A stretch of 64,000 bases of DNA, taken from an uncultured Candidatus Saccharibacteria bacterium. GTDB lineage: Bacteria > Patescibacteriota > Minisyncoccia > Phycocordibacterales > CSBR16-119. The number at the start of each line of letters is the position of its first letter. Within the stretch, counting starts at the first letter, position 1. Location: positions 4,548-68,547 of the forward strand of contig CAZHCS010000002.1 in the NCBI GenBank assembly GCA_964531475.1, read 5' to 3'. A program made the position numbers and the translations under genes. Below are positions 31,741 through 55,194 of this stretch, one piece after another. The notes below the pieces were generated by a model. That model was not told the origin of the DNA, did not search any database, and was given only the letters and a program-made list of their open reading frames with translations.

Positions 31741-31907
31741 AATAGTTTTTAGATTTTAATAGACGTATATTAGCATTCTGTGCCTCAAAATCAAATTAGT
31801 TTATCTCTTACTTTTGTCTTGAAACAAAAGCTCAAGACTCTGGAGAAAACGCCCACTCCTGACAAAGCGGGTGTCAATGTACCCCCCCTCCAACCAGACG
31901 AAGCAGA

Positions 31908-34803: not shown

Positions 34804-35265
34804 CTAGGCATTTTCAAGCTGCCTGATGAATTCGACGGTTTGCACCCCTTTAGCGCACTCGAAGCAGATCCACCCAGGGCTTTGGGCCTTGACCTGCTCT
34901 TCACGATTCGCCTGAGCGCGAGCAATGTCGTCCATTGTTCTTCCTTCTTGCGGCAAGTTCAATCCCGTCGGAAAATCATACGTCAGATTCGAAATGAGAT
35001 CGAACGTATCGGCGTCGATCTGATCGCGCCCCTCAATTCCTTCTGGTGTATGCGACCTTCCTACCTCCTGCTTTTGATCAGGTATGATCTTGACCAGGGT
35101 CCCGACCCCTTCGCAATGTGGGCACGAGACACCCTCGAGATGGTGCAAGCTGTATTTGGCCAGCCGGTTCTTAGCGTTGGGGGGGCCGGCAGTTCCGGTT
35201 AGCTTAAAATCGAGTCCGCGGATCAGGAATTTCAGCCCTTGCACGACGTCTTTCATGTTCGCCAT
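34804..35265 (-). CDS. Hypothetical zinc-ribbon protein
   Basis: CPHCEG ... CFECAKG cysteine pairs. Confidence 0.4.
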   Translation of the reverse strand: MANMKDVVQGLKFLIRGLDFKLTGTAGPPNAKNRLAKYSLHHLEGVSCPHCEGVGTLVKIIPDQKQEVGRSHTPEGIEGRDQIDADTFDLISNLTYDFPTGLNLPQEGRTMDDIARAQANREEQVKAQSPGWICFECAKGVQTVEFIRQLENA

Positions 35266-50305: not shown

Positions 50306-51976
50306 TTACATCCTCTCCGGTGCTTTGATGCCAAGGAGCCAGAGACCGTTATGGATAGTCTGACCGACGGCTTTGGCCAGGGCGATGTTATAAGAAGCGT
50401 TTACATTTTCAACATCGATAATCTTTGTGTTTCCGTACCAAGAATTAAATGCGCGCGCGAGCTCTAAAAGATAAATAGCAACATGATGCGGCGCCAAAAA
50501 GTTAATCGATTCTTCGACGACCTCTGGAAAACGCGTGAGCAAGCGTTCGACATCGCTCACAGCAAGTTCTCTTTTTTCTCCTGACTCGGTAATGCCCGCC
50601 TCGCGCGCCTTTTCGAGCAGCGAATTGATACGCGCATGCGTGTACTGCAAATACGGACCAGAGTCGCCTTCGAAAGAAAGCGATGTTTCTGGGTCGAAGT
50701 TTATATTCTGCCCGGGTTTTGATTTGAGGATGGAAAATTTGATCGCGGCGATGGCGACGGCGTCAATCATCTCTTGCGAGAGCGCGCGTTCGGCAGAGCG
50801 TTCGCGGACTTCTTCGGACACCGTATCGAGGATATCCGTCGCGAGCGGCACGCCACCGAGGCGGCTCGACATCTTTTGCCCCTTGAACGTCATACGGCCA
50901 TGGGGTACATGGCGATTATTGTTTGCCCAGGCATTATCTATCTTATACGCAGCATCAATGACCAAAGCAAAATGCTGAATCTGTTGATAGTCAGTTACAA
51001 ATATAGATAAGTCTGGATGATATCCTTCAAACTTCATCTTTATTAAACCAAGATCTTTTGCTTCATAAGTAGGATTTCCCTGGCTATTGATAAATACAGC
51101 TGTGTTTAACCAAGGTGTTGAAGTATCAGGGATATACACAATCGCGCCTTCACTTTCGGTAAAGACTTTTGGTGTATACTTCTCTACTAATTCTTTACCG
51201 ACAACGCCGGCCTCGCTTTCATAAATATAGCTATCGAAGTGCGAACCGAGCCGCGCCACAACGCTTTCGAAATATTTAATATTGAACTCTTTGCAGGCCT
51301 TGAAGAGCCGGAATTCGGGCGTGTCGGCCCCAGCGTAGAGATTGTCCGCGATCTCTTTGACACGCGATTGGATGCTTTCGTCTTCTTCGAAGCGTTTGGT
51401 GCCTTCGACATACGCATCGCCAAGCGCGCTGATCTCGAGATTCTCCGTATCGATATTTTTCTCAAGCAAGACGAAGATCGCTTTGGCAACGCCGAGCGAG
51501 ATATCCGACGGGAACGAGACGCTCGACACCTCTGCCCCGCTCGCGCGCATGAGGCGCACTAACGACTCGCCGATAGCGTTGTTCATCATGTGGCCGATGT
51601 GGAACGGCTTGAAGAGGTTCGGGCTCGAATGCTCGACGAGGATTTTCTGGCCCGCGTGGATGTTTGAAATGCCGAACTGTGCGTCGATGCCACGGATGAC
51701 GTTCGCAAAATACGCCGGTGAAAGGCGGAAATTGATGAACCCGGGACCCGCGACGTCGGTCGAGGTGACGAACTCGTGGGTTGGGAGCGCAGAGCGGATG
51801 GCTTCGGCGAGTTCGCGCGGATTCTTGCCAGCTTCTTTGGCCAAAGCGAGTGCGACGTTCGTCGAATAGTCGCCATGGGCGAAGACCTCCGGATGCTCGA
51901 GCGCCGGGTCAGCCGAAAATCCGAGCGCTGCGAGCGCTTCGGATATGAGCCTCTTTAATTCTGATTCTATATTCAT
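50306..51976 (-). CDS. argS: Arginyl-tRNA synthetase
   Basis: HSSPNLFKPFHIGHMMNNAIGESL; C-terminal anticodon-binding domain; start taken at MNIESE next to the msrA stop (the track ORF extends to 52039). Confidence 0.9.
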   Translation of the reverse strand: MNIESELKRLISEALAALGFSADPALEHPEVFAHGDYSTNVALALAKEAGKNPRELAEAIRSALPTHEFVTSTDVAGPGFINFRLSPAYFANVIRGIDAQFGISNIHAGQKILVEHSSPNLFKPFHIGHMMNNAIGESLVRLMRASGAEVSSVSFPSDISLGVAKAIFVLLEKNIDTENLEISALGDAYVEGTKRFEEDESIQSRVKEIADNLYAGADTPEFRLFKACKEFNIKYFESVVARLGSHFDSYIYESEAGVVGKELVEKYTPKVFTESEGAIVYIPDTSTPWLNTAVFINSQGNPTYEAKDLGLIKMKFEGYHPDLSIFVTDYQQIQHFALVIDAAYKIDNAWANNNRHVPHGRMTFKGQKMSSRLGGVPLATDILDTVSEEVRERSAERALSQEMIDAVAIAAIKFSILKSKPGQNINFDPETSLSFEGDSGPYLQYTHARINSLLEKAREAGITESGEKRELAVSDVERLLTRFPEVVEESINFLAPHHVAIYLLELARAFNSWYGNTKIIDVENVNASYNIALAKAVGQTIHNGLWLLGIKAPERM

Positions 51977-52521
51977 TTCAATAATTCTTTGTGGTTTTTC
52001 TCGAGCTTTTTTATCTTTGGAGCCACGACCAGCTGGCAATACGCCTTGTCCGGATTCTTGCCGAAGTAGTCGTGATGATAATCCTCGGCCGGATAGAACT
52101 CGTCGGCCAATGAGACTTCGGTCACGATAGCTTTGCCTGCTTGCGCATCGGCTACGAGGACGCCGTATTCGCGGATCTTTTCGTCTATCACATCCTTCTG
52201 TTCGTGCTCGGTGTAGAAAATGGCGGAACGGTATTGGTTGCCGACATCGGCACCTTGGCGATCGAGCGTGGTCGGATCGTGGCTGTCGAAGAAAACGTCG
52301 AGGATGGCTTCGGTCGAAATGTGTTCAGGATCGTATTCCACCTTTACGACTTCGGCGTGACCGGTCATACCAGAGCAAACTTCTTCGTACGTCGGAGCCC
52401 GTCCATCGGTCGGTGAATGCCCGCCCATATATCCGGGAGTGACAGAAAGAACGCCATGGAGGGAACGAAATACAGCCTCGGTACACCAGAAGCATCCACC
52501 GGCTAGGTATATCGTCTCCAT
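51973..52521 (-). CDS. msrA: Peptide methionine sulfoxide reductase MsrA
   Basis: IYLAGGCFWCTEAVF active-site motif. Confidence 0.9.
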   Translation of the reverse strand: METIYLAGGCFWCTEAVFRSLHGVLSVTPGYMGGHSPTDGRAPTYEEVCSGMTGHAEVVKVEYDPEHISTEAILDVFFDSHDPTTLDRQGADVGNQYRSAIFYTEHEQKDVIDEKIREYGVLVADAQAGKAIVTEVSLADEFYPAEDYHHDYFGKNPDKAYCQLVVAPKIKKLEKNHKELLK

Positions 52522-52533
52522 GGCGTTAGTTTA

Positions 52534-53523
52534 TCATAAATCGGCTAGCCCCGCTTTTCGAGATAGTTTCGAAGTATTTCCATGTGACAACAGGCCTTGG
52601 TAAGAAACAATGACTTCTTCCTTGGGGTTATCTTTCAGTTTCTTGAACATCCTATTTTTAGTGGTCGTGCGCAAAACCCTGTGATCGAAGAAATGCACCC
52701 AGCCCAAGAAATCAACGCCGGAGTTGATGGTTCGTATACTGATCTTGTCAGGATGGAGCGTAAGACGTAAACGAACATCGAGAAATTCTTCTATCTTTCC
52801 AAGCAATTGCGAAAGATATCCCTTATTCTCATACAAGATCACAAAATCATCCGCATAGCGAATATAATATTTTACTCGCAGTTCGTTTTTCATATACTGA
52901 TCAAACTCATTCATGTAAACATTCACCAAAAGTTGCGAGGTGAGATTGCCGAGAGGCAATCCCCTGCCTGGAGAGGTGTTAAAACTTTTCACCACCTGAC
53001 GCACGAGCCAGATGATATCTTTGTCTTCAATATGTTTATCCAGAATCTCAAAGAGAGTTTCTTGATCGATGGAAGCGAAGAATTTTTTAATATCGCATTT
53101 CAAAACCCAAAGCGTTTTCGTATTATTTCTGCTTACCTTGTAAACGAATGAACGAAATCGTTTCAACGCCCGATGAGTCCCCTTCCATTTGCGGCAAGAG
53201 TACGAGTCAACAACAAATTTCTTATCGAAATAAGGATATAGATGCCGGTAGATAGCATGGTGAAGCAATCGGTCACGGACACTCGCTTTGTGAATATTTC
53301 TAGGCTTCGGATCGGAAATATTGAAGGCATAGTAACCGCCGTGAACATATCTTTTCGCAACCAAATCTCTGTGTAGGATCAAAATATTATCCATGAGATG
53401 GACTTGAAATTCCTGTACGTCTTTCTTGGCGCGTTTTCCTCTCACGAACTCACGCCACGCGGAAAGCAAATTCTCCGTGGAGATGATATCCTTATACCTA
53501 TGAATAAAAATATTTCGAGCCAT
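52534..53523 (-). CDS. Diversity-generating retroelement (DGR) reverse transcriptase
   Basis: RGLPLGNLTSQLLVNVYMNEFD (the DGR-type I/LGxxxSQ in RT motif 4), RYADDFVI (YxDD), C-terminal SYQGLLSHGNTSKLSRK; 329 aa with no maturase/X domain. Confidence 0.85.
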   Translation of the reverse strand: MARNIFIHRYKDIISTENLLSAWREFVRGKRAKKDVQEFQVHLMDNILILHRDLVAKRYVHGGYYAFNISDPKPRNIHKASVRDRLLHHAIYRHLYPYFDKKFVVDSYSCRKWKGTHRALKRFRSFVYKVSRNNTKTLWVLKCDIKKFFASIDQETLFEILDKHIEDKDIIWLVRQVVKSFNTSPGRGLPLGNLTSQLLVNVYMNEFDQYMKNELRVKYYIRYADDFVILYENKGYLSQLLGKIEEFLDVRLRLTLHPDKISIRTINSGVDFLGWVHFFDHRVLRTTTKNRMFKKLKDNPKEEVIVSYQGLLSHGNTSKLSRKAGLADL

Positions 53524-53558
53524 AAAAATTCAACCAATGCGCCCCCCCCCCACGGCTT

Positions 53559-53906
53559 TTGCCGGTGATCCTGAAACTGAAAGATGCTTATGGAGTATGG
53601 CAAGGATATTGCGCCCACTTCCCTAAAGCAAATCGCTTCACGCTTGGAAGCAAGATCGATTCCGTATTTCTTGAAAGCATAGAGTCTTCTTTTGTCGCCA
53701 GTTATTCCGTCGGACAAGTAAAGTTGAATCATGTTGAGAGCACTATTACGAAAACGGATCTTTTAAAGCTCCTCTTGCAATTGGCTTGGGAAACGAAGGC
53801 GATCGACAACAATAAATATATTCATTTGAGCGAACTCTTAGCCGAAGTCGGCAAGATGCTCGGAGGCTGGAAACGGCAACTGGCAAACAAAACTCCCGCC
53901 GCGTGA
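53559..53906 (+). CDS. avd: DGR accessory variability determinant (Avd; 23S-rRNA-IVS-family four-helix bundle), opposite strand to the RT/TR/VR
   Basis: C-terminal LAEVGKMLGGWKRQ matches the Avd hallmark (compare bAvd IAEVGRILGSW); 115 aa; only a TTG/GTG start is available. Confidence 0.7.
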   Translation: MPVILKLKDAYGVWQGYCAHFPKANRFTLGSKIDSVFLESIESSFVASYSVGQVKLNHVESTITKTDLLKLLLQLAWETKAIDNNKYIHLSELLAEVGKMLGGWKRQLANKTPAA

Positions 53907-53930
53907 TTGTCGACGGGAGAACCGTAGGAG

Positions 53931-54062
53931 TTGCGAACGCCGAGGAAGCGGTAGTTGCGATTCCAGTCATTGTCGAACCAATTCAGGTTCAGGTTACGCT
54001 TCGAATCGTTCCTGTTGAGGTAAGCCACGTTGCGGTTGCCATTGATCTTGGCCACGGAGCCA
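53931..54062 (-). repeat. DGR template repeat (TR), 132 bp
   Basis: Matches 54401-54532 at 112/132 positions; 19 of 20 mismatches have A on the minus strand in this copy; the VR reading frame translated over TR gives Asn-rich VAYLNRNDSKRNLNLNWFDNDWNRNYRFLG. Confidence 0.85.
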
Positions 54063-54305
54063 TGTGTGACGCGCCATCTAGTTCACCACCCTTCGAGTCG
54101 GAGAAACTGAAAACCCTCAAGGCTGAATCGTATTCGCAACCTTATATGTTGCAGAGCATGTCACACCAACTTTTCTCTGGTTTTTGTTCTGAATTCCTCC
54201 TGACACTCTTTTGAAAACCGTGGCCTTCAAAACTCTCGCCAAGAGGCATGCGGACAAATTACCCAAAGCCGTGACCTTAGATTTCTCATTTGTCGAAATT
54301 ATTGT

Positions 54306-54343
54306 AGCAAAAACGCAAAGCCGGCGCACAGAGTGCGCCGGCA
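54306..54343 (-). terminator. GC hairpin plus T-run 55 nt downstream of VR (terminator; also a candidate homing-enhancing stem-loop)
   Basis: gccggcgcac-tct-gtgcgccggc followed on the minus strand by TTTGCGTTTTTGC. Confidence 0.6.
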
Positions 54344-54396: not shown

Positions 54397-54999
54397 CTAT
54401 TTGCGACCGCCGAGGAAGCGGTAGTAGCGACTCCAGTCATCGTCGAACCAATGCAGGAGCAGGAAACGCTCCGAACCGCGCCTGCTGAGGCAAGCCACGC
54501 TGCGGTCGCCACCGATCTCGGCCACGGAGCCGAGTGCCACGATCGGGTACTTCCGCTGTTCTTCGGGCAAGGCTGCGCCATACGCAAGGAGCTCCTCGAT
54601 CTTGGCTGGCCGGAACCCGTCCTTCTCCATCTCTTTGATCGCGTTCTCCGAAGAGATGTCGCGGTCGAAGTGGAAGAGTTTGGGTTCGAAACCCACTTTG
54701 CCGGTGCCGGACAGCGGGAAGCGCTTCGCCGTGATGTCGTCGTTCTTCCAGTCGTAGTTGCCGGCGGCGATCATCTGCTCGAGCGTCATGCCATAGTCCA
54801 CGAAGAACTTCATGTCGAGCGGCGAGAGGTTGAGCACCTTGCGCAGCGCTTCACGATCGATCTGCGTCGGATCGGCTTCGATGAGGTCAGCGAGCGAGCC
54901 GTTCGTGAGCAAGGATTGGAATCCTTGATGGTCCTTGCCTTTTGCTTCGAGCAATGTGGCGAGGCTGGCCAGTTGGCCTGAAGTGAATGCGGTTTTCAT
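54397..54999 (-). CDS. DGR target (variable) protein with C-terminal VR
   Basis: 200 aa; C-terminus ...VACLSRRGSERFLLLHWFDDDWSRYYRFLGGRK* encoded by VR; the stop codon lies at the VR 3' boundary. Confidence 0.8.
   Translation of the reverse strand: MKTAFTSGQLASLATLLEAKGKDHQGFQSLLTNGSLADLIEADPTQIDREALRKVLNLSPLDMKFFVDYGMTLEQMIAAGNYDWKNDDITAKRFPLSGTGKVGFEPKLFHFDRDISSENAIKEMEKDGFRPAKIEELLAYGAALPEEQRKYPIVALGSVAEIGGDRSVACLSRRGSERFLLLHWFDDDWSRYYRFLGGRK
54401..54532 (-). repeat. DGR variable repeat (VR), 132 bp, inside the 3' end of the target gene
   Basis: See the TR entry; substitutions occur only where TR has adenine on the coding strand. Confidence 0.85.
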
Positions 55000-55194
55000 C
55001 GGACTTGTGGTCTTTTGAATCTACTCCCGAAGGGTAGCGTGCTATTCTCCTCTCCCGAATGGGCGGTTTGGCATAGCTTTGAAACTTCAATGATGTAAAG
55101 CCTCAAAGCTATGCCAAATTTCGCAAATAGTTCAGTTTTGAAGAACGATTTTTACCTGTCCATTATAACATATGACAAGTCATTTTGTCAATAG

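Follow-up and report, generated by a model that had tools for sequence, protein, structure and literature searches.

What does a run of ten cytosines do at the junction of two head-to-head genes in a diversity-generating retroelement (DGR)? The locus that raises this question lies in a 64,000-nucleotide stretch of contig CAZHCS010000002.1 (assembly GCA_964531475.1) from an uncultured Candidatus Saccharibacteria bacterium, here called the window. These 64 kb hold a complete DGR, which is on the minus strand except for avd, the gene of the accessory protein Avd, which is on the plus strand. The C10 run between avd and the reverse transcriptase (RT) gene is the longest homopolymer of the window and its sole run of at least 9 nt; only two C runs reach 7 nt. 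A C7 run is found at 31882-31888 and a G7 run at 35179-35185. Our analysis showed robustly that a conserved, pure, and length-polymorphic simple repeat stands at the avd/RT junction of most DGRs in this clade of the candidate phyla radiation (CPR). The parts that adjoin the junction in the window are as follows.

52534..53523, minus strand: DGR reverse transcriptase, 329 aa (ATG as the complement of 53521-53523)
53500..53502, plus strand: second upstream ATG, 7 nt after TATCCT (53487-53492), in frame with avd at C8/C11
53537..53539, plus strand: ATG 2 nt ahead of the C run, +1 out of frame in the window and in frame at C9
53542..53551, strand not applicable: C10/G10 simple-sequence repeat that separates the RT start from the conserved Avd core
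53559..53906, plus strand: avd open reading frame (ORF) as read in the window, TTG start, 115 aa, containing LAEVGKMLGGWKRQ; alternative start GTG 53565

Relatives of the locus were collected by Avd alignment, which gave 160 loci, namely 80 from GTDB species genomes (all CPR/Patescibacteria metagenome-assembled genomes, MAGs) and 80 from metagenome contigs; the set was then extended with Logan, ENA, and JGI contigs. The repeat census covered 166 loci from many CPR lineages, of which 156 were assessable; seven lay at contig edges, and two were N-masked. The site was taken to extend from the RT start to the conserved Avd core ..P[RK]L[IL]PVVLKLKD. A repeat occupied it in approximately 147 of the 156 assessable loci, as pure C in 135, (GA)n in 11, and (CA)n in one, and was missing from nine. 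The lengths of the pure C runs were 5 nt (2 loci), 7 nt (11), 8 nt (15), 9 nt (42), 10 nt (46), 11 nt (11), 12 nt (6), and 13 nt (2), with 133 loci having a run of 7-13 nt. The occurrence of three repeat types at one site argues for selection on the repetitive character itself and not on a sequence motif, and the codons of the repeat are all CCC, a choice that argues against selection for prolines. With regard to the other repeat types, a subclade (L013-L019, L094, and L098) carries (GA)6-17 in place of poly-C, directly after the ATGATG of avd, and L023 carries (CA)5 at the repeat position. In two GTDB genome records (L033 and L037), an N-masked stretch falls exactly on the repeat position upstream of avd.

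Tract lengths were compared between loci with identical flanks of 100+100 nt. In the lineage of the window, C10 (window), C9 (L001, L084, and L085), and A+C12 (L002) were found between identical flanks. Further identical-flank pairs differed as C12 vs C13 (L007 and L087), C7 vs C8 (L010 and L091), and C9 vs C10 (L026 and L028), and L016 and L098 were one GA unit apart. We also used Avd proteins whose called start lies downstream of the tract as look-up queries, a choice that introduces no bias toward any tract length. The P0116 lineage yielded C9 six times, C10 twice, and C12 once, the P0025 lineage yielded C8, C9, and C9, and the P0013 lineage yielded C9, C10, and C9. Altogether, four of the five sampled lineages showed variation in tract length. 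When JGI metagenome contigs were scanned for the exact flanks, no more alleles were found.

Such differences could be sequencing or assembly artefacts, in which case the C10 of the window would be a miscalled C9 and avd a normal ATG-started gene. This explanation draws on the facts that C9 is the commonest call in the window lineage, that homopolymers are error-prone, and that Logan contigs are unpolished. However, the 3-nt difference between C9 and C12 and the difference of a whole GA dinucleotide are hard to ascribe to homopolymer miscalls, the variation appears in four of five lineages and across pipelines (GenBank MAGs, JGI, ENA, and Logan), and the flanks are otherwise identical over 200 nt. 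We therefore consider an artefactual origin very improbable. The initial annotation of this DNA had described the run as a phase-variation substrate at the place of the divergent promoters and 5' untranslated regions (UTRs) of both genes. Its first part agrees with the data in that length differs between assemblies of one lineage, and the repeat is a clade-wide feature; the regulatory function attached to it is presumptive. The second part requires correction, as the run of this lineage follows an ATG at a distance of 2 nt, within the first codons of the avd frame, and is not simply a promoter or UTR element.

The relationship between tract length and the avd reading frame was then followed. 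In the window phase, avd has only TTG (53559) and GTG (53565) as start candidates, as had been noted initially, because ATG 53537 is one base out of frame and ATG 53500 is also out of frame. In the C9 contigs, ATG 53537 is in frame and opens a 122-aa Avd (P0001, MRPPPRLLPVILKLKD..., that is, MRPPPRLLPV...). In the P0002 lineage, which is 84% identical, ATGCGA-C11 is in frame and gives MRPPPPRLLPV, and the relative P0004 starts in frame at the ATG equivalent to window position 53500 (MNENILSHKNTAITTPPRLLPV). Only 3 of 130 loci had an ATG downstream of the tract but ahead of the conserved N-terminal P[RK]L[IL]PV, repeat-free relatives have an ATG exactly between the tract site and the conserved N-terminal residues, and the repeat of the (GA)n clade follows directly on ATGATG. 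Together, the scarcity of a downstream ATG, its presence in repeat-free relatives, and the ATGATG-(GA)n arrangement indicate that translation normally enters through the repeat, and the tract is probably translated.

We propose that C10 belongs to a hypermutable repeat that selection maintains across the clade at the junction where avd and RT meet head to head. Slipped-strand gain or loss of C would shift avd among three phases. At C9 or C12, an Avd of 122-123 aa starting with MRPPP(P)RLLPV would be made, and at C8 or C11, a longer Avd would start from ATG 53500. At C10 (the window) or C13, no ATG would be in frame, and avd would apparently be OFF, with weak TTG/GTG translation at best. Because cDNA synthesis in the Bordetella system depends on Avd, the tract would act on mutagenic retrohoming as a stochastic, heritable, and reversible gate. 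The proposal starts from the presence, position, conservation, and purity of the repeat, its polymorphism between assemblies, and its frame relationships; we infer from these that a change in length alters expression and that switching takes place within populations. A contingency-type switch is the most parsimonious account, and the probability that the tract gates avd in the window lineage in this way, with the window apparently OFF, is in our estimate roughly 50%.

Several observations weigh against such a gate. The tract of the P0003 lineage was invariant, with C9 in four samples. Short-read assemblies can miscall homopolymer length, and the polymorphism is one between assemblies only. Among 130 dereplicated consensus loci, an upstream ATG was in the avd frame in 35, vs 69 and 56 for the two shifted phases. 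This lack of ON enrichment would be equally expected if the tract were untranslated, and it means either that most populations are OFF or that the tract is not decoded as assumed. The TTG and GTG codons may give a near-full-length Avd in the window phase, and OFF may be leaky, because the NCBIfam Avd profile aligns from residue 1. In addition, the window lineage lacks a promoter-like pattern found on the RT side of many relatives (below); its run is followed by CGCATT, and no -35-like TTG precedes it.

Part of these data would also fit a tract that is conserved for a reason other than switching, for example as a DNA or RNA element of the divergent junction, with Avd starting downstream of it or in any phase and drift in length being tolerated. 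The phase relative to the upstream ATGs is roughly random, and the window ORF from TTG 53559 aligns from position 1 of the Avd profile. Furthermore, ATG 53500 opens a 22-codon ORF in the window phase (MNKNISSHKNSTNAPPPHGFCR) whose TGA (53566-53568) overlaps the avd GTG at 53565 (GTGA), which would permit reinitiation and is a possible route in the window. However, stop/start overlap was found in 12 of 145 loci against a background of 12.5%, showing no enrichment, and termination-reinitiation rescue was rejected as a general route. Three unrelated repeat types (C, GA, and CA) at the same site, and the fact that no start codon recurs consistently in the stretch from the tract to the conserved N-terminal residues, also argue against a non-switching tract. 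Nine relatives keep a DGR without any repeat, so the tract is not a core element of the retroelement. A non-switching reason for its conservation is thus rather unlikely.

On the RT side of the junction, a second pattern was observed in the relatives of the "long" class, whose run and Avd core are 29-39 nt apart; the window belongs to the "short" class. Read in the RT sense, the long class follows GGTTGNNN-(6-10 nt)-G(n)-TANNNT-(7 nt)-ATG. TANNNT came directly after the G run in 54 of 120 loci, vs 4% expected, and was followed by N6-8 and the RT start codon in 41 of the 120. It stood exactly 7 nt ahead of the RT ATG in 23 of 67 loci; nearly all other offsets had at most three loci, and the exception was an offset of 4 nt, shared by seven loci, most of them members of the (GA)n clade that carry ATGATG. 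Relatives L009, L021, L029, and L049 are examples with TANNNT exactly 7 nt ahead of the RT start codon. In the 41 loci, the spacer from the nearest upstream TTGNNN to TANNNT was 14 nt in one locus, 15 nt in five, 16 nt in nine, 17 nt in six, 18 nt in 11, 19 nt in four, and 21 nt in one. The long-class pattern is promoter-like and may be a form of sigma-70 promoter with the repeat as its spacer, which would give a leaderless or short-leader RT mRNA. The arrangement suggests back-to-back leaderless-type promoters of avd and RT, each within the coding sequence of the other. On the avd side, TATCCT-N7-ATG occurs in the window (53487-53502, plus strand) and in several relatives, where it is antisense within the RT codons (E/K)-D-I.

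The tract might then be mainly the spacer of an RT promoter, that is, a transcriptional rheostat that sets the -35/-10 distance of a promoter from which a leaderless or short-leader RT mRNA arises, with the effects on the avd frame being incidental. In line with this, the long class shows the G(n)-TANNNT-7 nt-RT ATG logo with its excess of TANNNT over expectation, and the position of GGTTGNNN, 6-10 nt upstream of the run, results in spacers with their centre at 16-18 nt. The run lengths also cluster at 9-10 without 3-nt periodicity, and C9, the majority allele of the P0116 lineage, gives a 17-nt spacer. However, the window lineage has neither TANNNT nor a -35-like TTG, and the spacer explanation is therefore inapplicable to the window. 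The pattern fails in the (GA)n clade as well, where the repeat lies ~45 nt upstream of the RT ATG, beyond any spacer. Moreover, homopolymer purity is not needed for a spacer, and the conserved avd codons CAA CC(N) also read as GGTTG in antisense. Co-adjustment of flank and run length to hold a 17-nt spacer was not detected (26/41 observed vs 25.9 in permutations). We regard a tract that serves mainly as an RT-promoter spacer as unlikely. Within the proposed avd gate, the tract of the larger sister group would additionally fill the spacer between the -35-like TTGNNN and the -10-like TANNNT 7 nt ahead of the RT ATG, and its length would tune RT transcription. In a broader form, CPR bacteria might gate their DGRs by a dedicated contingency repeat common to avd and RT, acting through stochastic Avd translation and, in many lineages, through RT promoter strength, whereby only a subpopulation would hypermutate at a given time. 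We advance this broader proposal tentatively, as one somewhat more likely to fail than to hold.

The remaining parts of the DGR bear on a different model of its control, according to which avd and the template RNA interfere with each other. They are listed below in the order in which the minus strand is read.

55162..55191, minus strand: promoter-like site of the target gene, sigma-70-type, TTGACA-18-TATAAT with TG, 12/12 positions agreeing with the consensus
54397..54999, minus strand: DGR target gene, 200 aa, no Pfam domain, with the variable repeat (VR) at its 3' end
54402..54531, minus strand: VR, 130 nt, with 20 differences from the template repeat (TR), 19 of them at TR adenines
54310..54342, minus strand: post-VR hairpin (10 bp, 9 of them GC; stem 54342->54320) with a T-run, intrinsic-terminator-like; the DGR inverted repeat downstream of the IMH element (short for initiation of mutagenic homing)
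54301..54309, minus strand: extended -10-like element TGCTACAAT that adjoins the terminator tail downstream, a candidate promoter for the TR RNA
54179..54239, minus strand: conserved leader hairpin AGAGU-stem-AGAGUG, weak partial match to Rfam RT-7 (RF03028)
53932..54061, minus strand: TR
53885..53919, minus strand: stem-loop (53919->53893) and U-run (53892->53885) directly 3' of the TR, overlapping the avd stop and last codons (NKTP)

Of the 130 positions, 20 are different between TR and VR, and 19 of the 20 are minus-strand TR adenines; all 34 TR adenines fall at codon positions 1-2. TR, VR, target, and RT are thus in the minus sense and avd in the plus sense. The VR ends 3 nt ahead of the target stop codon (54397-54399), and a GC-rich inverted repeat follows. 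The RT matched PF00078 (7.5e-23), and its best solved relative was 8ub7_A (3e-42, residues 12-299), which we take to be bRT. With its TR/VR adenine bias, adjacent RT, and VR at the 3' end of the target followed by a hairpin, the locus is a DGR. The plus-strand ORF at 53559-53906 matched PF22296 (bAvd) at 52.5 bits (gathering 40). It also aligned over its full length to NF033474 (DivGenRetAVD; 2.1e-17), with residue 1 on profile position 1 and a score of 63.3 bits, below the 80-bit cut-off. PF05635, the profile first suggested for it, gave only a sub-threshold match (E 0.049, 14.3 bits vs a cut-off of 33.8) and was set aside for PF22296 as the appropriate model. By these profile matches, the ORF is a true Avd, in agreement with the initial annotation. 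No second Avd-like ORF and no second VR were found in the 64-kb window; a PDB sequence search with the Avd profile matched no chain.

The coordinates and strands of all parts also bear out the earlier description of avd as lying antisense between TR and RT. That description had called the layout non-canonical, and here it needs revision. The RT was head to head with avd in 153 of the 153 relatives with a detectable RT. In approximately 76 of the first 82 loci, the TR started 0-30 nt past the avd stop; TR/VR mismatches were almost confined to T of the avd-sense strand, with the VR a further 450-500 nt away. Wu et al. (2018, NAR 46:11; PMC5758913) had described this order as architecture B3, TR-(avd)-RT, with parentheses marking the reverse strand, and had found it in 90% of their CPR set. 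The window locus is thus a typical B3 member, with a layout that was already known.

A terminator-like hairpin with a U-run lies directly 3' of the TR. In the window, the U-run is UUUUGUUU (53892->53885), and the stem-loop has a folding energy of -20.8 kcal/mol (z -2.9). Among 140 dereplicated loci, such a hairpin with a U-run was present on the RT strand in 125 and on the avd strand in two. The hairpins had a median of 9 bp and -13.8 kcal/mol and included 96 distinct 5' arms, which points to abundant compensatory change. The invariant C-terminal N-K-T-P codons of Avd (AAC AAA ACT CCC) are the antisense of the 3' arm of the hairpin and its U-run (GGGAGUUUUGUU). The tail of avd (53885-53906) thus looks like a dual-coding segment that specifies both a protein end and an RNA hairpin/terminator, conserved in 125 of the 140 loci. 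A preprint by Handa et al. (10.1101/2023.10.23.563531) reported an Avd-binding stem-loop of ~9 bp just past the TR in 207 of 278 DGRs, CPR included, and the hairpin of the window is probably of this type as well as a predicted terminator of the TR RNA. RNAalifold found no conserved RNA structure deeper into antisense avd beyond the TR-adjacent stem-loop, leaving a long spacer RNA dual-coded with avd unsupported.

Upstream of the TR, TGNTANNNT peaked at 230-250 nt in 48 of 122 relatives, which is the place of TGCTACAAT in the window, and a conserved leader of ~230 nt separates this extended -10 from the TR. The leader contains an AGAGU-hairpin with compensatory changes in 24 of the 122 loci. 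It resembles the Rfam RT-7 RNA in its 5' hairpin with AGAGU...AGAGUG flanks and compensatory stem changes. However, the window (54239-54202) aligns to the first hairpin of RF03028 alone, at 23.3 bits against a gathering score of 116.8, eight relatives gave no match at E<=0.1, and membership of RT-7 was rejected. In CPR DGRs, the elements of the template RNA that interact with the RT may lie 5' and not 3' of the TR. A sigma-70-like match (TTGGTG-17-TATAAG in the window), 50-79 nt upstream of the TR, was first read as the TR promoter; because the extended -10 peak at 230-250 nt is stronger and conserved hairpins lie in between, it is now regarded as part of the conserved leader. Taken together, the template RNA looks like its own unit of ~400 nt with its own promoter, leader, and 3' stem-loop, and appears to overlap avd in its last 20-35 nt only. 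The locus would then be built from four transcription units, namely the target gene, the ~400-nt template RNA, the opposite-strand avd, and the RT.

This organization bears on the model of the initial annotation, in which TR and RT are co-transcribed through antisense avd and Avd is expressed in mutual exclusion with TR RNA and RT by transcriptional or antisense interference. The model agrees with the convergent orientation of avd and TR and with the divergence of avd from RT. The avd-sense copy of the hairpin is also without a U-run, and avd transcripts might enter the TR. However, the stem-loop and U-run close the TR unit on the RT strand (125/140 vs 2/140), an extended -10 precedes the template RNA, and no conserved RNA structure continues into antisense avd. 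Many relatives also have a promoter-like TANNNT of their own 7 nt ahead of the RT ATG, and Wu et al. (PMC5758913) noted that TR and RT need not be co-transcribed. A separate TR unit makes read-through of avd from TR to RT unneeded, and the antisense, mutual-exclusion model thereby loses its premise. Both the co-transcript and the exclusive expression are thus without support here, and we consider such interference highly improbable.

Some further features were noted around these DGRs. An msrA gene (window 51973-52521, minus strand; PF01625 according to public gene calling of L001) begins on the same strand 13 nt past the RT stop. The two genes may form one transcript, and L001 has this adjacency as well. 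A 103-aa ORF (window 53903-54214, plus strand) is gene-called in public Logan annotations (e.g., L001 1848-2159). It is the antisense of the TR and leader, a spurious call that recurs beside avd. In the P0003 lineage (L173/L174, 3246-3330), a large serine recombinase gene (Resolvase/Recombinase/Zn_ribbon_recom) lies just past the DGR target gene, which hints that some of these DGRs are on or beside mobile elements.

Although unchecked retrohoming ought to carry a cost, a survey (PMC8144416) describes DGRs as broadly active, with diversification alternating with selection. A slippage-prone repeat at the avd/RT junction would be a simple principle of regulation, open to testing, for the largest clade of cellular DGRs. 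If true, it would amount to a mutational switch over a mutagenesis machine, conserved in most of the Patescibacteria DGR clade. In practical terms, the annotated starts and lengths of avd in CPR MAGs are unreliable, because gene callers choose TTG/GTG or over-extended starts according to the phase of the tract, and the antisense position of avd does not imply regulation by read-through. A repeat at this junction was not described in Wu 2018, Roux 2021, Paul and Eren 2022, or the Handa preprint, nor in papers found by full-text search on DGRs together with homopolymers, simple sequence repeats (SSRs), or phase variation, a scope outside which Paul et al. 2017 (Nat Microbiol) fell; the clade-wide repeat thus appears to be undescribed before.

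Among known systems, the B3 DGRs of CPR hosts in the survey of Wu et al. (2018, PMC5758913) share with the window the order and strands of target/VR, TR, reverse-strand avd, and RT. That survey makes no mention of a homopolymer, simple repeat, or promoters at the avd/RT junction. The architecture was therefore known, and the length-variable repeat at the junction is the addition made here. The window locus resembles the DGR of Bordetella phage BPP-1 (mtd-avd-TR-brt) in its adenine-specific TR-to-VR differences, its TR adenines at codon positions 1-2, its Avd and RT, a stem-loop that follows the TR immediately and is similar to the one described as binding Avd in Bordetella, and its GC hairpin after the VR. 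In contrast, the BPP-1 genes are all co-directional, with a 140-nt spacer RNA between TR and brt, whereas avd is inverted in the window, the 3' trailer is only ~45 nt long and ends in a U-run, and a conserved leader of ~230 nt precedes the TR. To our knowledge, no repeat-based switch has been described for BPP-1.

SSR contingency loci offer the closest comparison for the tract itself. Poly-G/C tracts lie in ORFs of Campylobacter and Neisseria, promoter-spacer tracts occur in Neisseria porA/opc and Bordetella fim, and the (TA)n tract of Haemophilus hifA/hifB is common to divergent promoters. The window has the corresponding features, namely an uninterrupted G/C run of at least 7 nt in the 5' part of an ORF (C10) and length polymorphism between identical flanks. 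More generally, what the junction repeats have in common with these loci is purity over a minimum of 7-8 units, a place at an ORF's 5' end, between promoter hexamers, or both, variation in length among near-identical strains, and one tract shared by two divergent genes. They differ in that the length differences were seen between assemblies alone, the hosts are uncultivated CPR bacteria, and the product of the affected gene is a mutagenesis factor and not a surface antigen.

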